Below are positions 25,344-40,973 of a DNA stretch of 64,000 bases, one piece after another. Below the pieces are notes generated by a model. It was not told the origin of the DNA and ran no database searches. It was given only the letters and a program-made list of their open reading frames with translations. Each line of letters begins with the position of its first letter. Positions within the stretch are counted from its first letter, which is position 1. The position numbers and the translations under genes were made by a program. Origin of the DNA: an uncultured Gemmatimonadales bacterium (GTDB lineage: Bacteria > Gemmatimonadota > Gemmatimonadetes > Gemmatimonadales > GWC2-71-9); the NCBI GenBank assembly GCA_963730915.1, contig CAVSTR010000003.1:192729-256728 (forward strand), written 5' to 3'.

Positions 25344-28130
25344 CTATCCCGTCGCCCCGAAGCCCGCCGCAATACAGTTGATCGAAAGCAGGAGCGCAGA
25401 GAGCTGCTCTTCCTGCGTCTTGTCCCCGCCCGACTCACGAAAGCGCCGAAGCAGCTCGATCTGCTGGCGACTCACCTGGTTGATCGTCGGCAGCCGACGC
25501 GCCAACCGCCTCCGAAAGCGTGGATAGCGCTCCACCAGCTCCTTACCGCCGCTGATGCGCAGCACCGCTTCAACCGTACGCTGATACTCCTCTTCAATCA
25601 TTCCGAGTACGCCGGCCCGGATACGGGCGTCGGGAACGAGGTCCGCATATTCCCGCGCGATGTCCAGGTCCACGTAGGTAAGTGTCTTCTCAACCTCATC
25701 CACGATAAGGCGAAAGAGTCGTGACTCGGCGAACATCCTGTCCAGGAGCGCGCTGCCTCGCTGGCCTCTGACCTGAAGGAAGGTGAGAATGCCGCTGCCA
25801 ACGCCGTACCATCCGGGGATGAAGTGCCGATTCTGGGACCACGCAAACACCCACGGGATTGCCCGCAGATCGCTCAGCGACCGGGCCCCGAACCGGCGTG
25901 CCGGACGCGAGCCCATGTTAAGCAGAGAGATCTCTTCCAGCGGACTGGCCGCCTGGTAGTAGGCCAGGAGGTCGGGATGGTCCACCAGCTGCCGGTACGA
26001 AGCCTGCGCCGCACCGGAGAGCGCTTCCATTGCCTCGTCGAATTCCGCCGTTGGTGACAGGGCCTTCTCCCGCTCGGACTTGAGGGAGTGCTCCACCACG
26101 CTGGCGGCGAGCAACTCGATCTGATACTGGGCCGTACCACGATTGGCGTATTTGAACGACACCACCTCACCCTGCTCCGTGATCCGCATGCGACCATTGA
26201 TGGACCCGGCGGGCTGCGCTGCGATCGCCCGGCCAGTGGGCGCGCCTCCGCGGCTTACCGAACCGCCCCGACCGTGAAAGAACGCAATCGGCACACCGCT
26301 CTCCTTGCCTACGCGCGTCAGCTTGATCTGGGCTTTGCTCAACTCCCAATTGGACGTCAGGAACCCGCCGTCCTTGTTGGAGTCCGAGTACCCGATCATC
26401 ACTTCCTGCACGCCGCCCTGGGCCCTAACACTGCGTCGGACCAGCGGCACCGCCAACAGCTCCTTCATGATGGCGGGAGCTCGCTGCAAGTCTTCGATGG
26501 TCTCGAACAGCGGTACGATCGGGAGGGTGGAGGTCTCCACGCCGGCGGTGTCGCCGAATAGTCCGGCGGTTTTGGCCATGAGGTACGCGCCCAGAATATC
26601 GCTCACGCTGCGCGTCATGCTGAGGACGAAGGCGCCGAAGGCTTCTCGATCCACCTCATCGCGAAGCTGACGTACCAGCTGAAACATTCCCAGCGTTTCT
26701 GCCGACTCCGGCGGCAGTTCCGGGTCCGCCTGTCCGGGAGCCAGCGGTCTCGCCAGCTCGGCACCGACCCATTGGCGCCATGCTTCTGATTGTTGCTCGG
26801 GGGCTTGTCCGTCGGGCCCGTCTGTCCGCACGTCCGGCCGCCCACAGGTCCGCCAGTGCGGCATTGAGTTTCGTAGTGTTCTCGCGCACGTCCAGACGCA
26901 CGGTCTGAAAATCGGAACGACTCGACCTCGCGTCGGACCGGACGCACCAGCGTCTGGCGCCAGTGAGATGCTGCCGCCGAATCCCAGGGCCTCTTCGATC
27001 GCCCGCAAATCCGTGATCAGCGCCTCGGCCGAGGCATAGCCCGCCGGGTCAGGTGCCGTTCGCCCCTCTTCCGACTTTGCGATCATGACATCGAGACGGC
27101 GGCCCATGCAGGCGAGATACTGGCGGAAAATTTCGCCCGGGTTGCGGGCCGCGATTTCCTCGCCCTCCCCGGTGGCGGCAAGCTCCTTAGCCAGCGACTG
27201 CCGAAAACTTTCCGGAACCGGAACCGCGCGCTCGGTGATGCTCAACGCGCGTACCAGCTCGGAGAGTCTCCGGCGATACCGGCGCAGAGCGGTGAGACGG
27301 TTCTCCAGTATCGTGCTTCTGGTCACTTCGTTGGTGACGAAGGGATTGCCGTCCCGGTCGCCCCCGACCCACGACCCAAATTGAAAGAAGGGAGGTACCT
27401 GGATGGTTCGGTCGGGGTACGCGTGTGACAGCGCTCGCTCGAGCTTGTCGAGCAAGTCCGGCACCGCTTCGAACAGCGTCTCGTTGAAGAAGTGCAGTCC
27501 CCAGAAGACCTCCTGCGGGACCGTCGGCTTGACGAGACGGAGCTCGCCGGTGGTCCAGAGCAGCTCGATCTCGTTTCGGAGACCATCCACCAGTGCCTGC
27601 CGTTCCCGCGGTGTCCACCGGGGCGACTCCAAATCCACCAGCCGGCGATACACGCGGCGGTGCTTTTCGAGCACAGTGACACGGCGCGCTTCGGTCGGGT
27701 GAGCGGTGATCACAGGCCGGATACGCAGCACGCCGAGCAGCTCGGCCATCTCCTGCGAGGAGACACCCGCCGCGGCCGCACCGGTGATCACCTGGGCAAA
27801 AGTGCCGCGGAGCTGATCATAGCCACGCTCGATTTCCACCTGCCGACGGCGCCGCATGGCCGCGTTTTGCTCCGCGATGCTCAGGAGCTGGAACCAGATT
27901 CCCTGAACCTGAAGCGTACGGGCGAGAAGCTCGGGGCTCAGGCTCGCGGCGTTGCGCTCACCGCGCAGGACCGACTCCACCTCCGGCTGCCGTTCCCTCA
28001 CCAGCTCGAGAAGGAGGCCGGAGAGCAGCTCGACGACTTCCTGGGCATACGCCGCAGCACTCGCCGCAGCCGGATCGGCCGACTCCGGCAGCATCTCCGC
28101 TGAGAACGGCTCGAGCGCTGTGTGCGTCAT
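25344..28130 (-). CDS. ppc: Phosphoenolpyruvate carboxylase (compensating frameshifts about 26830-26950)
   Basis: VITAHPTE, SWVGGDRDGNP, VMIGYSDSNKDGG, FHGRGGSVSRGG and LRAIPWVFAW. RLDVREN is displaced into another frame. Confidence 0.95.
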   Translation of the reverse strand: MTHTALEPFSAEMLPESADPAAASAAAYAQEVVELLSGLLLELVRERQPEVESVLRGERNAASLSPELLARTLQVQGIWFQLLSIAEQNAAMRRRRQVEIERGYDQLRGTFAQVITGAAAAGVSSQEMAELLGVLRIRPVITAHPTEARRVTVLEKHRRVYRRLVDLESPRWTPRERQALVDGLRNEIELLWTTGELRLVKPTVPQEVFWGLHFFNETLFEAVPDLLDKLERALSHAYPDRTIQVPPFFQFGSWVGGDRDGNPFVTNEVTRSTILENRLTALRRYRRRLSELVRALSITERAVPVPESFRQSLAKELAATGEGEEIAARNPGEIFRQYLACMGRRLDVMIAKSEEGRTAPDPAGYASAEALITDLRAIEEALGFGGSISLAPDAGASGPTRGRVVPIFRPCVWTCARTLRNSMPHWRTCGRPDVRTDGPDGQAPEQQSEAWRQWVGAELARPLAPGQADPELPPESAETLGMFQLVRQLRDEVDREAFGAFVLSMTRSVSDILGAYLMAKTAGLFGDTAGVETSTLPIVPLFETIEDLQRAPAIMKELLAVPLVRRSVRAQGGVQEVMIGYSDSNKDGGFLTSNWELSKAQIKLTRVGKESGVPIAFFHGRGGSVSRGGAPTGRAIAAQPAGSINGRMRITEQGEVVSFKYANRGTAQYQIELLAASVVEHSLKSEREKALSPTAEFDEAMEALSGAAQASYRQLVDHPDLLAYYQAASPLEEISLLNMGSRPARRFGARSLSDLRAIPWVFAWSQNRHFIPGWYGVGSGILTFLQVRGQRGSALLDRMFAESRLFRLIVDEVEKTLTYVDLDIAREYADLVPDARIRAGVLGMIEEEYQRTVEAVLRISGGKELVERYPRFRRRLARRLPTINQVSRQQIELLRRFRESGGDKTQEEQLSALLLSINCIAAGFGATG

Positions 28131-29103
28131 ACTACGCGGTCACGGAGGGGAGCGCCGCTGAAAAAGAGCTGCAGATTTTCCAGTGCTCGCATCCCCATTG
28201 CCACGCGGGTTTCCTTGGTGGCACTTCCCAGGTGGGGGAGCAGAACCACGTTTTCCATCTTCAACAAGGCGGGCGATACCTTTGGCTCCTGCTCGTACAC
28301 ATCCAGCCCGGCCCCGGCAATGGTTCCGTCCGCCAACGCTTCCACCAGCGCCCCTTCATCCACGACATCGCCGCGCGCGGTGTTGATGAGGTATGCGCTC
28401 CGGCGCATTCGGGCGAGCCGCTCTCGATTCATCAGGTGCCGAGTCTCGGGAGTGGCCGGACAGTGAAGCGAAATGAAGTCAGCCTCCTCGAGTACCTGCT
28501 CCAGCGAACTTCTCGGCTCTGCGCCGAGGGAAGCCGCTTCCGAGGGTGAGGGCGGATAGGGATCGTGAAAGATGACGCGCATGCCGAAGCCGTGATGAGC
28601 CCGCCTGTGCCGCGGCCCTTGCGATCCGCCCCATGCCGATGAGTCCCAGCACCTTTCCACTGACCTGAGAGCCAAGCATGTGGGTGGGGCGCCACCCGGT
28701 CCATGCCCCACTTCGCACGTGCCGCTCCCCTTCCCCGGTCCGGCGGCTGACCATGAGCAGGAGCGTGATCGCGATATCGGCGGTGGCTTCGGTGAGGACG
28801 TCAGGTGTATTGGAGACGGCGAGTCCGTGTTCCTGGGCCGCCTGAGTATCGATGTGGTTGAAGCCAACCCCGAAGTTGGCGAGGATCTTCGCCCGGCGAG
28901 GCTTCGCGCTGAGAACCTCGGCGTTGATGCGGTCGGTTACCGTGCAGAGCAACGCATCGGCACTCCGCAGAGCTTCCTTCAGCCCGTCCGGTCCGAGCGG
29001 CTTGTCCTCGGTATTCAGGCGCGCGTCAAAGTCGCGACTCAGCGCCTCTTCCACCGTGTCGGGAAGGCGCCGAGTCACCACGACGCTGTGGCCGCGAGCT
29101 CAC
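28127..29103 (-). CDS. Hydroxypyruvate/glyoxylate reductase (D-2-hydroxyacid dehydrogenase), frameshifted
   Basis: GVGFNHID, NTPDVLTEATAD and GMGRIA in one frame; LINTARG.VVDE, GLDVYEQEP and LPHLGSAT in another. Confidence 0.88.
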
Positions 29104-30014
29104 TTCGCTACAGCCTTCTTGCGCGAGGGCTTCTTGGACAACGCGGCCGCAATAGTCGACCCAAGCTCCGCAGGGCTCGGCGCTACCGTGAGCCCGGCCG
29201 AACGCATGATTTCAGCCTTCTCCGCGGCAGTGTCGCCGAATGCCGAGATGATCGCGCCCGCGTGGCCCATCCGGCGCCCCTTGGGCGCGGTCAATCCGGC
29301 CACATAGCCGATGACTGGCTTGCTCATGTTTTCCTTCACGAAGAGCGCCGCCTCGGCTTCCTGCGGTCCGCCGATCTCGCCGATCATCATCACAGCCTGC
29401 GTCTCCGGATCTTCCTCGAACAGCTTCAGCATGTCGACGAAGGAACTACCGTTGATAGGATCGCCTCCGATGCCCACGCTGGTAGTCTGGCCGATGCCCA
29501 GGGCGTTCATCTGCGCCGCGGCTTCATACCCCAGTGTCCCCGACCGGCTCACCACACCGACCGACCCACGGGAATAGATGTGCCCCGGCATGATGCCGAG
29601 CATTGCCTTACCGGCGCTGATGATGCCGGCGCAGTTCGGGCCTATCAACGTGGTGCGCCGCTCCTTGGGAAACCGGAAGAGATAACGCTTGACCATCATC
29701 ATGTCCTGCGCCGGGATGCCGTCGGTGATGGTGCAGACGAGGCGGATCCCTGCATTGGCGGATTCCATGATCGAGTCAGCGCAGAACGCTGCCGGCACGA
29801 AGATGATGCTTGCCTCCGCGCCCACCTCGCGCACCGCCTCCTTGACCGTGTTGAACACCGGCCGGTCTAAATGTCGTGTGCCGCCTTTACCTGGAGTGAC
29901 ACCGCCAACCACGTTGGTGCCGTAGGCGATCATCTCTCGGGCATGAAAGGTTGCCTTTTCGCCGGTAAAGCCCTGGACGATGACACGCGTCCGCTCGTCG
30001 ATCAAGATGCTCAT
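29100..30014 (-). CDS. mtkB: Malate--CoA ligase (malate thiokinase) alpha subunit
   Basis: SucD fold with [21 protein letters not shown] and [10 protein letters not shown], as I recall for methylotroph MtkB. Lies in the cluster with mcl/sga/ppc. Confidence 0.88.
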
Positions 30015-31213
30015 GGTGCACCATTCCCTGATGCGGAAGACTGGGCGCGCGAGCTCTTCAGCGCACCGACGACACGTTCGGCGGCTTCCGAGAGCGATCC
30101 CGCCGTGATAATCGGAAGACCGCTGTCTCGGATGATCCGCTGTCCTTCCTCGACATTGGTGCCGGCAAGACGAACCACGAGGGGCACCTTCATCTGGATG
30201 TCTCGAGCGGCCTGCACCACACCCTGAGCAACCCAGTCGCAGCGATTGATGCCGGCGAAGATGTTCACCAGGATGGCGCCGACCTTCCCGTCCGACAGTA
30301 CCAGCCGGAACGCTGCCGCAACCCGCTCGGGCGAGGCGCCGCCGCCGACATCGAGGAAGTTTGCCGGCTGACCGCCGGCATGCTTGATCATGTCCATGGT
30401 CGCCATGGCAAGTCCGGCCCCGTTGATTATGCAGCCGATGTCACCATCGAGACCGACGTAATTCAGTCCATGCTCGGCTGCCTGAGCCTCCCGTGGATCC
30501 TCCTCCGCGTAATCTCTCAGCTCGCTGACGTTCGGCCGCCGGAACATGGCGTTGTCGTCGAATGTCATCTTGCAATCGAGCGCGAGCACCTGCCCATCCG
30601 CGGTAACGACCAGAGGATTGATCTCGACCATCGTGGCATCGAGGTCGCGAAAGGCACGATAGGCTCCCAGCAGAGTCGTCACCGCACGGCTCACCTGTGC
30701 CGGCGCGAGACCGAGGCCGTACGCGATCTCTCGAGCCTGGAACGAGCTCATTCCGATCGCCGGCTCGACCGATTCCCGAAGGATTGAGTTCGGAGCGCTC
30801 CGGGCGATCTCCTCGATCTCCATTCCGCCTTGAGGATGTGCCACGATCATGATGCGCTCCGTCTTCCGGTCCAGTACCAGACCGAGGTACAGCTCACGCT
30901 CGATGGGGACCGCTGCCTCCACATAGAGCCGATGCACCACCCTGCCCTCCGGCCCGGTCTGATGGGTGACCAGGCGCTTGCCGAGGAGGTTCTTCGCCGC
31001 GGCACGCACCTCATCCTCGCTGGAGCAGAGCTTGATGCCGCCGGCCTTGCCCCGCGCACCAGAGTGGATCTGAGCCTTCACCGCCCAGCGGGCACCGCCG
31101 ATCTCGGTGGCACGATAGACCGCCTGCTCAGGGCTGTAGGCGACCCCCCCGCGCGGAATGGCAACGCCGAAGCCCGCGAGCAGCTCCTTCGCCTGATATT
31201 CGTGGATGTCCAT
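30011..31213 (-). CDS. mtkA: Malate--CoA ligase beta subunit
   Basis: [41 protein letters not shown] and [17 protein letters not shown] (MtkA-type rather than SucC GGIVRCD). Confidence 0.88.
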
Positions 31214-31221
31214 AGTCTTTC

Positions 31222-31365
31222 CGGGGATCGAGGATCAGAGATCGTGCGGTCTAGAGTCTACAGTCTAGAGCCTGGGTGGTGGTCAACTTCGGGCCCTGGT
31301 CTCAGACTTTGACTCTGGACTCTTGACCCTTGACCCTGGACTCCTCACCCTCGACCCTCGACATC
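31222..31365. repeat. Heptamer tandem repeats, inverted arrangement, overlapping the mcl 3' end
   Basis: gtctaga gtctaca gtctaga ... gactctg gactctt gaccctt gaccctg gactcct caccctc gaccctc. Confidence 0.8.
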
Positions 31366-32297
31366 TTTCCAATCGCTTTATCCGTATCCACCACATTCTG
31401 CGCCATCCTTGCGGAGGCCGCATCGATCATCCGGCCATCTAGCTGAGCCGCCCCGCGCCCTTCACGAGCAGCCTGCTCGAGCGCATCCAAAATGCGGCGG
31501 GCGCGCTCGACCTCTTTCGGAGGTGGGGTAAAGACCTCGTTTGCCAGCGCGATCTGGGACGGATGAATGGCCCACTTTCCCTCGATTCCCAGCGCGGCGC
31601 CTCGACGCGCGGCGAGTGTAAAGCCATCGGGATCCTTGAAGTCTCCGAATGGCCCATCGATCGCACGCAGTCCGTACGCTCGACATGCTACCACCATTCG
31701 CGACAAGGCTGCGTGCCACTGGTCGCCCGGATAATCGGGGTTGAGTCCACCGATGTTGACGGTCCGCGCGCGACAGCTGGCTGCATAATCGGCCACCCCG
31801 AAGTGCATGGCTTCGAGGCGGCGGCTGGACTGCGCGATGGCTTCCACGTTGGCCATGCCCAACGCCGTCTCGATCAGCACATCGATGCCGATCCGGTGGG
31901 GAATCCCGCGCGCTTCCTCGATCTGCGTCAGCAAGGCATCGACGAGGTACACATCTGCCGGCACGCCCACCTTCGGGATGAGCACCGTGTCCAGCCGATG
32001 TCCCGCCTGCTCGACCACGTCCACTACATCGCGGTACATGTAATGGGTATCGATGCCGTTGATCCGGACGCAGATAGTCTTGCCGCGCTCTCGCCAATCG
32101 TTCTCCAGCAGCGCAGCGATGACATTGGTCCGGGCCTGCTCCTTGTCGCCTGGCGCAACCGCGTCTTCCAGATCGAGGAAGATGTAGTCGGCCTCACTTT
32201 CCAGCGCTTTGCTGAACATGCCCGGTTGCGATCCCGGCACCGCCAACTCACTCCGCTGGAGGCGCGGCCGAGCGGGTTCGTAACGCGTATGGCTCAT
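31302..32297 (-). CDS. mcl: Malyl-CoA lyase (HpcH/CitE family)
   Basis: RLQRSELAVPGS, FLDLEDAVAP, RINGIDTHYMYRDVVD, IDGPFGDF and GKWAIHPSQI. Confidence 0.9.
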   Translation of the reverse strand: MSHTRYEPARPRLQRSELAVPGSQPGMFSKALESEADYIFLDLEDAVAPGDKEQARTNVIAALLENDWRERGKTICVRINGIDTHYMYRDVVDVVEQAGHRLDTVLIPKVGVPADVYLVDALLTQIEEARGIPHRIGIDVLIETALGMANVEAIAQSSRRLEAMHFGVADYAASCRARTVNIGGLNPDYPGDQWHAALSRMVVACRAYGLRAIDGPFGDFKDPDGFTLAARRGAALGIEGKWAIHPSQIALANEVFTPPPKEVERARRILDALEQAAREGRGAAQLDGRMIDAASARMAQNVVDTDKAIGKMSRVEGEESRVKGQESRVKV

Positions 32298-33556
32298 CGG
32301 CCGGCGCCCGCGGTGGCCTTTTCCTTGGTACCGGATTGAACCGGCTGACTGTCAGGCGCGCGCGGAGGTAGCTCGCGCTTGTGCAGGGGAGCCGCCGTGC
32401 TCCGCCAGTATTCCCCAGCCGCCGCGACGCCACTTCCCGGCGTGATCTTCATGCCGACATCACGCATCGCCATCTCGGAACCGGCAATGGCCCCCATCAA
32501 CATCAGCTCGTTCATGTCGCCAAGATGTCCGATGCGGAACAGCTTTCCTGCCATCCGCGCGAGCCCCGCGCCCAGCGCCAGGTTGTAGCGGCGGTAGGCG
32601 ACATCGATCACTTCGGCGCCGTTCACTCCGGGCGGTACCATGATGGCGCTCACCGTATCCGAGTGCCACTTCGGAGCTCGGGCGCAGAGCTCCAGGCCCC
32701 ACGCCTGCACCGCTCGGCGCGTGCCTTCCGCCAGGCGATGATGGCGGGTGAAAACATTCTCCAGTCCTTCTTCCATGAGCATGGCGATGGACTCTCGGAG
32801 ACCATACAACAAGGGAAGTGAAGGCGTATAGGGGAAATACCCGGTGGCATTCGCCTTCTGCATGTCCGTGAAATCGAAGAACACTCGACGGAGCTTGGCA
32901 TTTTCGCCGAGCGCGAGCGCCTTCTGGCTGGCGGCGACGATGCCGAGGCCGGCGGGAAGCATGAGCCCCTTCTGCGAGCCGGTGATCGCGAGGTCCACAC
33001 CCCACTCGTCCATGCGGAAATCGATGCTTCCGATCGAGCTGACTCCGTCGACCATAAGCAGCGCCGGATGCCTGGCGTCGTTGAGTACGCGCCGCATGGG
33101 GGCGACGTCCGAGGTGACGCCGGTAGCGGTTTCGTTGTGCGTGAACAGCACCGCCTTGATGGCATGGCTCTTATCGGCTTCGAGCGCTTCTTGGTATCGC
33201 TCGATCGGCGCGCCTTCACCCCACTCCGCCTCGATCACTTCGACCTGGAGCCCGAGGCGCTGGGCCATATCGATCCAGAGGTGGCTGAACATGCCGAAGC
33301 GCGACGCGAGGACCTTGTCGCCGGGCGACAGCGTGTTCGACAGTGCAGCTTCCCATGCACCGGTACCGCTCGATGGAAAGATGAATGCCTGGCCCGAGGC
33401 CGTCTTGAAGATCTTCTTCAGGCTCTCGAGCACCGGCGCGGCGAGCGACGGGAAGTCGGACGATCTGTGGTCCTCCATGGCCCGGTGCATCGCGCGGAGA
33501 ACGCGGTCGGGAACGTTGGTGGGCCCAGGTACGAAGAGAAAGTTGCGGCCGGCCAT
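32294..33556 (-). CDS. sgaA: Serine--glyoxylate aminotransferase
   Basis: GRNFLFVPGPTNVPDRV, EDHRS, FSHLWIDMAQRLGL, HNETATGVTS, GSQKGLM and GYFPYTP. Confidence 0.93.
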   Translation of the reverse strand: MAGRNFLFVPGPTNVPDRVLRAMHRAMEDHRSSDFPSLAAPVLESLKKIFKTASGQAFIFPSSGTGAWEAALSNTLSPGDKVLASRFGMFSHLWIDMAQRLGLQVEVIEAEWGEGAPIERYQEALEADKSHAIKAVLFTHNETATGVTSDVAPMRRVLNDARHPALLMVDGVSSIGSIDFRMDEWGVDLAITGSQKGLMLPAGLGIVAASQKALALGENAKLRRVFFDFTDMQKANATGYFPYTPSLPLLYGLRESIAMLMEEGLENVFTRHHRLAEGTRRAVQAWGLELCARAPKWHSDTVSAIMVPPGVNGAEVIDVAYRRYNLALGAGLARMAGKLFRIGHLGDMNELMLMGAIAGSEMAMRDVGMKITPGSGVAAAGEYWRSTAAPLHKRELPPRAPDSQPVQSGTKEKATAGAGR

Positions 33557-33635
33557 CTGGGGACCTCGACTTTTTGAAGAAGGCGACTGACCTTAAAGCG
33601 CCCGAATTCGAGCACGGGCCACCATTTTTAACACT

Positions 33636-33653
33636 TTGTGAACTTTTTCACAA
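33636..33653. promoter_or_regulatory. Rex operator TTGTGAA-cttt-TTCACAA
   Basis: Exact match to the established Rex consensus TTGTGAA-N4-TTCACAA, between divergent sgaA and gck. Confidence 0.8.
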
Positions 33654-33662
33654 GAGGCCGGG

Positions 33663-35010
33663 TTGAGCTCTTCCGCTGCTTTGCCCGCCACCCGTGACCT
33701 GCTCCTGGACCTTTACCGGACGGCCACGCGGCTGCCGCACCGGGTCCAGCGCTGGAGGCCCGCCTCCGGCGCCTTCCAGACGATGAGCCCGGTCGCCGGA
33801 TCTGGATCTTCGCGCTGGGTAAGGCGGCAGTGCCCATGGCGACCACCGCGGTTGAGGTCCTGCAATCCCAGGCAGACCGGCTGACCGGGGGCCTCATCGT
33901 GGCACCCGACGGGAGCGCCAGCCCCGACCCGCGCCTCACTCTCATTCTGGGTGACCACCCCGAGCCTGGTGCTCGCTCGATCGCCGCAGCCAAGGCTCTG
34001 GCCGATACGGCGTCCCAGGTTGGCTCCGGGGACGAGGTCTGGGTGCTGCTCTCGGGTGGTACCACCAGCCTGATCGGAGCTCCCGAGACCGGCCTCACAC
34101 CTGCAGACCTGAGGAACCTCTACGCGCTCTTGCTGGGCTCTGGTCTCGACATCACCGCCATGAATCAGATCAGAAAGCGCTTTTCCCGGTGGGGAGCAGG
34201 AAAGCTCGCCCGCGCGCTCCACCCTGCCCTGGTCCGGGTCTACATCGTCTCCGACGTTATCGGCGATGACCTTGCGTCCATCGGCTCCGGACCCTGTGTC
34301 CCCGATCCGACCACTGCCGTTCGACATCCACGACCTGCTCTACGCGCGCCGGGCTCTGGCCCAAAATTCCAGAGGCGGCACGCCGTATGATCCTGTCAAT
34401 GGAGTCGGGGGAAACGGCTGAAACGCCAAAGCCGGGAGATCGGGCTTTCGCGCGAGTGACCCTCGAACTGGTTGCCAGTAACAGGCTGGCCCTCGAAGCT
34501 GCGGCCAAGCGTGCGGCTGAGTTGGGCCTTGCTCCTGATGTCGTGGAGGTGCCGCTCGCCGGGGAGGCGGTTACGGCAGGAGCAAGTGTAGCCGACAGTC
34601 TTCTCAATAATTGCGTTCGACTGTCGATCCCGCAACCAACGAAGCGGCCACTCTGCCGAATTTGGGGTGGGGAGACAACGGTCAGCCTGGGCGATCACCC
34701 GACTGGACTGGGAGGGCGATCACAGGAGCTCGCGCTTGCTGCAGCTCGTACGCTCTCCGGCCGGCCTGGCGTCACGTTATTGGCAGCGGGTACAGACGGT
34801 CGCGATGGTCCGACCGATGCTGCCGGCGCCATCGTGGACGGGACCACCTGGACGGCCATCTCGACCGCCGGGCGCAGCCCCGAACACGATCTCGTCCGGC
34901 ATGATGCCTACCCGGCTCTGGCTTCAGTGGGAGCACTGGTGAAACCGGGACTCACCGGTACCAACGTCATGGATATTGTGATTGGGATCTGCGGGTACAA
35001 TCAGGGATGA
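33663..35010 (+). CDS. gck: Glycerate 2-kinase (DUF4147 + MOFRL), frameshifted near 33727 and 34320-34390
   Basis: ALGKAAVPM, GDHPEP, LLSGGTTSL, SDVIGDDLASIGSGP, GGETTV, GGRSQELAL, GTDGRDGPTDAAGA and TGTNVMD across three frames. Confidence 0.88.
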
Positions 35011-37692: not shown

Positions 37693-38161
37693 CGGGGTTC
37701 AGTTCCGCCAGCTCTCGCCGCCAGAAGTCACGAGTGGACAGCCCGGGATGGGGAATGATAAGGTCTGGGTCACGAACGTGCCGGGTACCGAACTTTACGA
37801 TATCGAGATCAAGGGTCCTGGAGCCCCACCTCTCCGCGCGCTCGCGGCCCGCAGCCAGCTCGATTGCCTGACACGCCTCGAGCAGCGCGTGCGGTTCGAG
37901 ACCGGTCTCGAGCAGCACCATTTGATTCAGGTAGGGAGGCTGTTCCTTGCCGCCGAGTGGGGCGGTCTCTTCGATGGACGATGCGGCGAGCAGGCGGGTC
38001 CGGGGCAGTGAGGCGAGAGCAGCTCGGGCTTTCTCGAGGTGGGCCGCACGGTTCCCCAGATTGCTGCCCAGCGCAACGTAAACCCGTTCGGGAGCGGCGC
38101 GGTCACCCTTCGACGGCAAAGTGACTCGCAATCCGCTGCAGGTCGGCCGCCAGGCTTCCAA
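37682..38161 (-). CDS. folK: HPPK (start uncertain, probably about 38105)
   Basis: [26 protein letters not shown] and LIIPHP. Confidence 0.93.
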
Positions 38162-40184
38162 GCTCGCGAATGGCTCGCTCCAGGTCTGCCTGTCCTGACG
38201 CGGCCTCGCCGGCTCGCTTGGCCAGGCTGTCGGTGTCGACTCTGCTGCGGGCGGAGCTTGCTGCCACCTGCTCGATCTGTCCGGTCAGATTGTTGACCGC
38301 GTCGCGCTGCTGGGCGGCGGTGGCGGCGATCGCCTTGGCGAACCCGCCGGCTTCGCCGGTGGTGCCGACGATGTCGTCCAGAGCCCGGGCAGCGTTCGCG
38401 CTGAGCTCCTCCACGCCCGCCACCACGTCACGGCCCCGCTCCATTTGGCCAGATACCGCCGACACCTGCGTGGTGATTTCGCCGAGGAGATTCCCTGCTT
38501 CGCGGGCCGCATGAAGACTCTGGGCAGCGAGATCCCGCACTTCGGAGGCAACGACGGCGAACCCTCTGCCCTCGCGGCCGGCGCGTGCCGCCTCGATCGC
38601 GGCATTCAGCGCAATCAGGTTTGTAAGGTCCGCGATCTCGCGAATCGTGCCGATGAACCCGGTGATCCGCTGGGTCAGCGCGCCGAGGGCGGCCACCCGG
38701 TCTGCACCCACCGCCACGAAGCCTTTCAGCTCGACCAGCCGGTCGATTGCGTCCCCGATGACCACGCGGTTCCGGGACGCCACGTGCGCAGCCGTTCCGC
38801 TTGCATTTGCGGCCTGTGCACCTTGAGTCATCATTTCCTGTGTGGCACTGGCTAACGATCCGGTGGCTCGTAATCCACCGGTAGCGAACCGTTCCAGCTC
38901 CACCGCGCCTTGGCGCATCCCCAGCGAGACATCGGCCAGCGCGGTCGCGGACGCGCGAAGGGAATCGGCGACGCGGGCCAGTGCGGTCACCTGCTCACCG
39001 ATCTGACTGACGGTGAGCACGAGCGGCCGCCGCAGCTCGGAGATATGGAAGGCGGTTGCGATCTGTCCCGCGAGCGTGCTCATGGCGAGCAGATCCTTGG
39101 GCCCGTATGCATGGCGCTTGTGATGTTCCACTTCCAGGGTTCCCAGGATCTCGTCGCCGAATTTGATCGGATGGATCACCAGCATGCTCACGTCGGTAAG
39201 CCCATCGCCCAGTCGCTCGTCCCGCGCCACGTCCCGGACGATCACCGGCTCCCGAGACTCGACTGCTTCACGTCGAAGGGGCTCCAGCTCCGCCGGAGGT
39301 TGGTTTCGTTTGTCGCGGCCGATCTTGCTGCGGTAGGCCAAGGATGCCTTCGAGCCATTCACGCGATACACCCGGAAATCGCCCCAGTCCAGCAGTCGGA
39401 AGGCAAGCCGCTCGATCTGGCCGAACGATCCCTGGAGCGTAGCATTGCTCGCGATAGTGGCCTCCATCAGGTGGACCTTGTTCAGGTCCTCCGCCCCGAT
39501 GGCCTCGTCCAGGATTTGTCTTGCCATGAGCCCCACGACACCCAGCGCGAGCGCGGCGGCAACCCACCCGATGGGAGCCAGGTTGGTGAGGGCCCAGACG
39601 ACAAAGGTCGAGGCACCCAGCGTCAGCAGGTACGAGCTGATCTCCCAGCGGAGGATGAGAATCTTCTCAGCGCTTTCCAGTTTGTTGCGAATCAGCAGGC
39701 TGAAATAGAATAGGGCCCGGCTGATGAAGAAGTAGAGCGCGGCCAGGATTGCGACCGCAGGAAGAAAGTCGACGGTCACCTCGCTCCTCTCGGTGAGCGC
39801 GAGAATTCCAGCGTAGGGACCGAAGGCAGCGACGAACGAGATCGCTTCGCGTCCGGCATTGACAATTCCGGCTCTCGGCTGCTTGCGCAGCCAGAACACG
39901 TCGGCTCCTACCACCCCCACCCACAATCCGGCGACGACCGGGCCGGGTCCGATGCTGATGGCGCCCACGAGCGTCGGGATGGCCGACTGGGTCAGATAGG
40001 AGTACTTGCTGAGCCTCACCGGCACAGAGCGAAGAACGAGAATGCTCAGCATCAGCACGATCGTGGAGATCGGCTGATGGATCCAGCGTTGATCCCATAG
40101 CAGTACAGCCACCGTCAGCAGAGATCCACCGACCCAGAGAACGTTGGTGTAGTGCCGCAGCAAAGCCGGGATCCGGATCGTCAT
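38103..40184 (-). CDS. Methyl-accepting chemotaxis protein with polytopic TM region and GAF domain
   Basis: Starts MTIRIP (ATG 40184), followed by about 7 TMs, a GAF domain (PVIVRDV..DER...[15 protein letters not shown]) and [30 protein letters not shown]. Confidence 0.9.
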
Positions 40185-40973
40185 TGTGCGTCCGGGTTGT
40201 CGAGAGCATCCCGAAGCGAGCCCAGGAAGCGGCGCGCCGCACGCACGCCATGCTGGCCCAGGATATCCACCAACGCACTTCCCACCACCACCCCGTCGGC
40301 CATCTGGCCCACTGTCCGGGCTTGCTGGGGAGTGGAAATGCCGAATCCGACAGCGACAGGTAGCGAAGTGGCCGCGCGAACCCGGCGAATCGACTCTTCG
40401 AGGTCGCATCGCGAGAGCGCCTCTGGCACCCGTGACACCGAGACGCGCAACGAGGTAGACGAACCCCTGGGCATCGTCAACCGACCGCTGGAGTCGGTCG
40501 GCGCGAGTCGTAGGAGCGACCAGACGCACGAGATCGATACCACTTCGCTGTATCGTCGACTCGAGCGCGGGATCTCCGCCTGCCGGCAGATCCGTGAGGA
40601 TGAGACCTGCTATCTGGAGCTGTTCCGCGTCATGCAGGAATCGATCGATCCCATACTGGAGAATCGGATTGAGATAGCTGAAGATCACGACCGGGGAGGC
40701 CGGCTGCGTGCTGGAGATGAGCTCCAGCGTACCGGCAAGGGTCATCCCCGCACGGAGGGCCTCGAAGGTGGATCGCTGGATGGTGGGGCCGTCGGCGAGG
40801 GGATCGCTGAAGGGAACTCCGACTTCGATGATATCCGCCACCTCGGCAGACGACCGTAGTGCATCGGCGCTGGCTTGCAGGCTGGGGTAGCCGGCAGTGA
40901 GATACGGGATCAGGGCCTTGCGGCCTGAGGCTTTGAGTGTGGCCCACCCCGGCGCGAGCCGGGATTCAGACAA
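40181..40973 (-). CDS. trpA: Tryptophan synthase alpha chain (frameshift near 40410)
   Basis: [26 protein letters not shown] and GVTGAR. The tail [10 protein letters not shown]...[11 protein letters not shown] is in ORF 40181-40543. Confidence 0.95.

Follow-up and report, generated by a model that had tools for sequence, protein, structure and literature searches.

The window, the whole 64-kb stretch of DNA analyzed here, comes from the metagenome-assembled genome (MAG) of an uncultured soil bacterium in the order Gemmatimonadales and contains an intergenic palindrome at positions 33636-33653 that is located between the minus-strand genes sgaA-mcl-mtkA-mtkB-hprA-ppc and the plus-strand gene gck. 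Six minus-strand genes lie directly downstream of the site, joined by 4-nt overlaps or short gaps. The first of these, sgaA (32294-33556), encodes a serine/aspartate-glyoxylate-type aminotransferase of class V, which scored 620.9 bits against the NCBIfam BhcA model (cut-off 650) and has orthologues in Gemmatimonadales that are 58-91% identical. It is followed by a gene for a CitE-like C-C lyase (31302-32297), whose first 4 nt overlap the end of sgaA; its product had matches at the family level only, all below the cut-offs, and was assigned as malyl-CoA lyase (mcl) by context. The next two genes encode the beta subunit of malate-CoA ligase (mtkA, 30011-31213; NF010647, 708.7 bits against an equivalog cut-off of 604) and, with a 4-nt overlap with mtkA, the alpha subunit of a CoA ligase that was called malate-specific by context (mtkB, 29100-30014; NF004230, 439.7 bits). 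An hprA-like gene for a glyoxylate/hydroxypyruvate reductase (28127-29081) is distributed over two frames (28479-29081 and 28127-28867), one of which matches the N-terminal and the other the C-terminal half of glyoxylate reductase models. The last gene of the predicted operon, ppc for phosphoenolpyruvate carboxylase (25344-28130), matched NF000584 with 736.6 bits in two stretches (cut-off 815), and its middle part matched no model. Divergent from sgaA, the plus-strand gene gck (33663-35010) encodes a glycerate 2-kinase-like protein of the MOFRL type and occupies three frames in this assembly.

Together, the cluster included genes for a serine-glyoxylate aminotransferase, a hydroxypyruvate reductase, a glycerate kinase, a PEP carboxylase, a malate-CoA ligase, and a malyl-CoA lyase. 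Only mtkA scored above an equivalog cut-off, and the other genes of the cluster were assigned at the family level and by context.

Several reading frames of the window are broken or fused. When gck was compared with the intact genes of three relatives (451-461 aa), single-base indels were located near 33727, 34315, and 34343. Elsewhere, GAF and MCP signalling domains are fused to a tryptophan synthase alpha domain in a 956-aa frame at 38103-40973. The frame breaks and fusions in gck, the hprA-like gene, 38103-40973, and ppc look like long-read assembly errors. If the breaks in gck and hprA were real, they would make the serine cycle defective in this organism. Sequencing runs were screened with sampled words of this DNA, and none contained more than 0.11 of the words. 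Four runs assembled onto the locus yielded short contigs only, mostly from relatives, and none of the contigs bridged the indel places in gck.

A predicted Rex operator between sgaA and gck

The sequence at 33636-33653, TTGTGAACTTTTTCACAA, is an 18-bp perfect inverted repeat of the form TTGTGAA-N4-TTCACAA, to which no strand was assigned. It matches 14 of the 14 specified bases of TTGTGAANNNNTTCACAA, which is the Rex operator consensus as quoted in excerpts of PMC6391272. Based on this match and on its invariance in 18 distinct related loci, the repeat was annotated as a predicted Rex operator.

The box is the sole match to TTGTGAANNNNTTCACAA with two or fewer mismatches in the 64-kb window, and any such match was found in 3 of 100 shuffled windows. 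Across the genome (3,627,035 bases), it is also the sole perfect match, where 0.0016 would be expected from the base frequencies of the genome. On the same basis 0.087 sites with one mismatch would be expected, and six were observed. At two or fewer mismatches, the genome contains 11 sites, compared with two for a reversed control pattern. The palindrome is real, and its occurrence is far beyond chance.

The sgaA ATG is at 33556, which places the box at -80 to -97 relative to this start codon. On the other side, the gck start was identified as a TTG at 33663, preceded by AGAGG at 33653-33657, and a TTG start of gck is common to three relatives. An earlier note on this DNA had described a perfect palindrome of the Rex consensus here, 10 bp before the gck start; the perfect match and the proximity held, with 9 nt between the box and the TTG. 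The same note had reported a minus-strand promoter candidate overlapping the site, and this arrangement was recovered as described: TTGTGA (33653-33648), a 17-nt spacer, and TAAAAA (33630-33625). The -35-like hexamer (33648-33653, minus strand) lies inside the predicted operator and is kept in all forms of the box among relatives, and the putative -10-like hexamer (33625-33630, minus strand) is preceded by TGT, as in an extended -10 element. Relatives carry a TA-starting element at the same 17-nt spacing, such as TATGGT, TATTCA, TATACA, and others. Of the candidate sgaA promoter, the box overlies the -35 hexamer and 12 nucleotides of spacer. A consensus promoter scan of 33450-33750 returned no promoter or terminator that reached its thresholds, the TTGTGA/TAAAAA pair being sub-threshold, and the promoter is therefore called from its conservation only. 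As the box ends 9 nt before the gck start, any promoter or leader of gck must overlap it. One metatranscriptome library contributed two short contigs, on 33438-33592 and 33599-33668, which were not counted as evidence of transcription because the library may contain DNA and the contigs show no starts.

The rex gene and its box

The checks by sequence analysis that the earlier note had proposed, namely a search for a rex gene and a comparison of the sites upstream of orthologous sgaA genes, both supported its interpretation. A full-length rex gene was identified. It encodes 206 aa at G000:C3:349131-349751 (the prefix G000 denotes this genome), approximately 123 kb from the sgaA/gck site. Its product matches PF06971 with 69.8-72 bits, above the curated cut-off, includes a CoA_binding Rossmann domain (73 bits), and passes several NCBIfam Rex cut-offs, for example with 251 bits against 126. 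Solved Rex structures could also be aligned to it over the entire length (167 bits), with the GxGxxG motif and the DNA-binding stretch RKDLS...G.RG.GY aligned. A Rex protein was present in 41 of 41 related genomes.

In this genome, a one-mismatch box is located 14 nt before the rex ATG. Among three families of the order Gemmatimonadales, a box was found 23-39 nt before the rex start in all 30 loci, a count that includes one locus of the unpublished genome G003, on which no conclusion here depends by itself. These boxes have no mismatch in 19 loci, one in 10, and two in one, and their arms are kept and their spacers differ. This occurrence before rex in every locus is the strongest reason for assigning the motif to Rex.

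Other sites in the genome

All seven sites with at most one mismatch are intergenic, in a genome whose three large contigs are 82-86% coding according to a crude ORF map. They precede sgaA/gck, rex, atpA-atpG-atpD, the genes for F0 subunits a and c, a gene of the isocitrate lyase (ICL) family, an exopolysaccharide (EPS) priming transferase gene, and a 266-aa gene. The F0-side box precedes a frame that ends in the F0 a subunit, and both ATP synthase operons are preceded by a box. The box upstream of atpA was observed in 25 of 29 loci, including 17/17 within the genus and 8/12 in other genera. An operon resembling alternative complex III has a two-mismatch site 32 nt ahead of its cytochrome and molybdopterin genes, and a three-mismatch site with an intact GTGAA-N4-TTCAC core is located 10 nt before nuoA. 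These positions support the view that the motif marks predicted targets of classical Rex classes, namely ATP synthase, nuoA, and alternative complex III. Upstream of cydA (G000:C5:434776-434850), only a degenerate palindrome with four mismatches, TTCTGAAAAGATTCAGGT, was found, and cydA was for this reason not counted as a Rex target.

The box of the ICL-family gene (G000:C3:421387-421404, or L014:10388-10405) is located 31 nt before this 379-aa gene, which is divergent from a GFO/IDH/MocA oxidoreductase gene at the box. All 21 in-genus loci for which upstream DNA was available carried the box, one of them from the unpublished genome G003. A search of 40 relatives identified the gene in 22 of 24 genomes of the genus and in none of 16 genomes of other genera. 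Its short, divergent product keeps a CGH motif and has only isocitrate lyases as its best solved relatives, but the score stays under the equivalog cut-offs for ICL. A canonical isocitrate lyase was not found in this genome.

Another one-mismatch box (G000:C3:418037-418054, or L014:7038-7055) was observed 161 nt before the gene for the EPS priming glycosyl-phosphotransferase. If real, this gene would be an unusual Rex target.

A regulator other than Rex was also considered for the sgaA/gck site. The genome encodes a CRP-family regulator with a cNMP-binding domain and an HTH, which might bind the site alone or in competition with Rex and would respond to a cyclic nucleotide or another effector instead of NADH. 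TGTGA-N6-TCACA is the classical CRP core, and the site contains it; the core occurs eight times in the genome, compared with zero to three times for other spacings. In addition, two HTH_Crp_2 proteins pass the cut-off in the genome, and one CRP-family protein (C5:810240-811010) carries an SRETVSR helix, which resembles the RETVGR helix of E. coli CRP. However, the eight cores split into two classes: five of them (those before rex, atpA, the ICL-family gene, the EPS transferase gene, and sgaA) carry Rex-specific A/T positions beside the core, whereas the remaining three have G+C-rich centres and precede envelope or polysaccharide genes. All 30 rex-upstream boxes also conserve positions outside the CRP core, namely the TT...AA ends and GAA...TTC, and the 400-nt region inspected around the CRP-like gene's start contains neither TGTGA nor TCACA. 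Control of the site by the CRP-family protein, in place of or beside Rex, is thus considered improbable.

The three G+C-centred palindromes (G000:C3:164566, C5:477769, and C5:564600) are located before genes for an outer-membrane beta-barrel protein, a glycosyltransferase / polyketide-cyclase pair, and a Wzz-type tyrosine kinase. They may represent a regulon of the CRP-like protein at C5:810240-811010.

Conservation of the site upstream of sgaA

The occurrence of the box upstream of sgaA varied among relatives. Within the genus, 20 sgaA loci (one of them from the unpublished genome G003) were compared, where seven carried the perfect box, nine carried TTGTGAAAAAAAGCACAA with two mismatches, and four had no match at three or fewer mismatches. 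Two sgaA loci of other genera had no box at this threshold. A second set of 80 named loci consisted of 44 labelled as Gemmatimonad and 36 from other phyla. Among the former, the box was perfect in 11, had two mismatches in nine, and was reduced to a four-mismatch form, TTGTGAAAAAAGGTGCAA, in five, with nothing better than five mismatches in the remaining 19. Among the loci of other phyla, a box at three or fewer mismatches was found in 0/36.

In the 18 distinct loci with a perfect box, 26 consecutive columns are invariant, consisting of one base, the box, and AGTGTTA, and both flanks of this block vary freely. The second check proposed by the earlier note was thereby borne out for only part of one genus-level clade. 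As the box is perfect, altered at two positions, or degenerate depending on the group, the wiring of sgaA to the predicted operator is restricted accordingly. In a quick SgaA tree of 38 rows, from which seven of the 44 Gemmatimonad-labelled loci were left out, all box-bearing rows fell within one clade of 28 (support 98), and 10 box-less rows formed the outgroup. The inner branches are weak, and the tree therefore cannot order the box forms as gain or decay. A comparison of the sequences suggests that the box has decayed in some species of the clade.

In the perfect, two-mismatch, and four-mismatch forms alike, TTGTGA is retained, with a TA-starting element 17 nt further on. Species with the four-mismatch form keep the -35 and -10 elements and not the right arm, which indicates that part of the conservation reflects promoter constraint and that the pathway can do without control by Rex. 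The invariance of the 4-nt spacer and the seven further nucleotides is not accounted for by Rex alone. A more radical interpretation is that the site is a promoter only, with TTGTGA as the sgaA -35, no repressor involved, and the second arm a by-product of local constraints such as a divergent gck promoter and leader; the fact that each of the three forms, even the one without the right arm, retains TTGTGAAAAA with a TA-starting -10 at 17 nt agrees with it, as does the invariance of the whole 26-nt block, spacer included, but it is very unlikely given a perfect 7+7 palindrome of the rex-upstream type (expectation 0.0016 per genome) and a right arm that is invariant in 18 distinct loci, even though the promoter works without this arm in species with the degenerate form, as judged by the kept gene and hexamers.

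Methylotrophy context of the genome

Further genes of C1 metabolism were identified in the genome. These included two PQQ alcohol dehydrogenases that exceed the cut-off of TIGR03075, fae adjoining a gene of the methylene-H4MPT dehydrogenase type, ftfL for formate-tetrahydrofolate ligase, and a malate synthase gene. A third PQQ alcohol dehydrogenase gene (G000:C5:411663-413155) is covered by the family model in three successive segments of one strand, and is therefore frame-broken in this assembly. A Rex box before the genes of C1 oxidation (xoxF-type, fae, and ftfL) was not found in the lists of box sites for the genome.

Methylotrophy through H4MPT and serine routes has been described in soil Gemmatimonadetes by proteogenomics, and excerpts of PMC5103831 describe these bacteria as abundant users of methanol whose methylotrophy proteins are highly expressed. 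The C1 gene set of this genome fits the methylotrophy outlined there. The regulation of assimilation is not treated in that text, and the words Rex, repressor, and NADH do not occur in it (PMC5103831).

Relation to known Rex systems

The Rex systems of Streptomyces coelicolor, Thermus, and Bacillus have operators (ROP sites) with the 18-bp consensus TTGTGAANNNNTTCACAA that the predicted operator matches, and they share with this genome a box before rex itself, which points to autoregulation of the gene. Rex operators have reportedly been characterized by Brekasis and Paget in 2003, and Rex regulons are said to have been compared by Ravcheev and colleagues in 2012. Predicted targets in energy conversion (ATP synthase, NADH dehydrogenase, and respiratory complexes) are shared with known Rex regulons, as would be the overlap between the operator and the candidate promoter. 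In contrast to those regulons, the sites described here belong to a member of Gemmatimonadota, and a complete serine-cycle gene cluster is among the predicted targets, as is an ICL-family gene. The site is best interpreted as a Rex operator of textbook form that has a putatively new set of targets in a little-studied phylum.

The serine-cycle genes sga, hpr, mtk, ppc, and mcl of Methylorubrum extorquens are controlled by QscR, a regulator of the LysR type. The same pathway genes are concerned here, whereas QscR belongs to another regulator family, acts as an activator with a metabolite effector, and occurs in another phylum. As the nearest public relatives of the aminotransferase are all from Gemmatimonadales MAGs, the comparison with Methylorubrum is one between phyla. 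No LysR-type domain was detected among the 40 of 59 window ORFs that were scanned, nor among the cluster genes.

Partial precedents were found among anaerobic fermenters. According to excerpts of PMC6391272, Rex binds before an operon for a class V aminotransferase and phosphoglycerate dehydrogenase in Caldicellulosiruptor bescii, and a serine-pyruvate aminotransferase is a predicted Rex target in Thermotogales. Like the C. bescii operon as described there, the cluster in the window is headed by a class V aminotransferase gene and is tied to serine metabolism through an NADH-dependent 2-hydroxyacid dehydrogenase step, represented here by sgaA and the hprA-like gene. The operons in C. bescii and Thermotogales serve the synthesis or utilisation of serine, whereas genes for malyl-CoA lyase, malate-CoA ligase, and PEP carboxylase are added here, with that for glycerate kinase opposite, which amounts to a full assimilatory serine cycle. 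Additionally, the genome is of an aerobic type, with XoxF-like dehydrogenases and an H4MPT route.

Literature searches, with approximately 1.7 million PMC articles and the subscription literature outside their scope, returned no paper that connects Rex with the serine cycle or with serine-glyoxylate aminotransferase. Within the same scope, no paper treating a Gemmatimonadota Rex regulon or the Rex of methylotrophs was found. The earlier note had regarded the wiring as undescribed, which stands for control of the serine cycle by Rex and has to be qualified by the partial precedents in C. bescii and Thermotogales that the excerpts of PMC6391272 contain.

Proposed regulation of the serine cycle by Rex

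Taken together, the sequence evidence argues, with a probability of roughly 0.8, that 33636-33653 is the operator of the NADH/NAD+-sensing repressor Rex, which would govern the sgaA operon and gck according to the level of NADH. The analysis suggests, by inference, binding, repression, a response to NADH, and a physiological role at the sgaA/gck site. A Rex dimer bound at 33636-33653 would cover the -35 and most of the spacer of the putative sgaA promoter. Because the operator lies over these elements and 9 nt from the gck start, one bound dimer should block both transcription units, that is, the six-gene sgaA-mcl-mtkA-mtkB-hprA-ppc operon and the divergent gck.

Studied Rex proteins bind DNA at a low NADH/NAD+ ratio and leave it as NADH rises. 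The serine cycle consumes NADH, through hydroxypyruvate reductase and malate dehydrogenase, as well as ATP, and its joint control with ATP synthase and respiratory complexes by a redox sensor therefore makes coherent sense. By analogy with studied Rex proteins, whose release by NADH is stated in excerpts of PMC6391272, Rex would be bound at the sgaA/gck site at a low NADH/NAD+ ratio and released upon a rise in NADH. A high level of reducing power, resulting for example from C1 oxidation or oxygen shortage, would then induce the serine-cycle genes together with ATP synthase, the respiratory complexes, and the ICL-family gene. Rex on a serine-cycle promoter offers a concrete and testable model, in which assimilation would track the NADH/NAD+ ratio and not a pathway metabolite. 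Under the same reading, Rex regulons would extend to Gemmatimonadota, a phylum for which the literature searches returned no described one.

A broader role for Rex can be put forward tentatively, and we consider it possible, though on balance doubtful. Rex may be the master switch of methylotrophic assimilation in this soil Gemmatimonadales clade, where NADH derived from C1 compounds would derepress the serine cycle, the ICL-family gene, ATP synthase, complex I, and alternative complex III. In this view, the link would have been gained in one genus-level clade and lost again in some of its species. If so, a general redox sensor would perform the function of the dedicated, metabolite-sensing activator QscR of Alphaproteobacteria, the ICL-family gene would be a possible route for the regeneration of glyoxylate, and the clade would represent a natural experiment in the rewiring of a carbon-assimilation pathway. 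The three natural versions of the site, namely perfect, two-mismatch, and decayed, provide ready-made probes and populations for testing the model.

One further feature was noted in the same intergenic region. Absent from the sgaA leader of this genome, clusters of short TCTAGA-containing repeats were observed between the promoter and the start codon in the sgaA 5' leaders of several relatives (loci L021, L022, L024, and L026).
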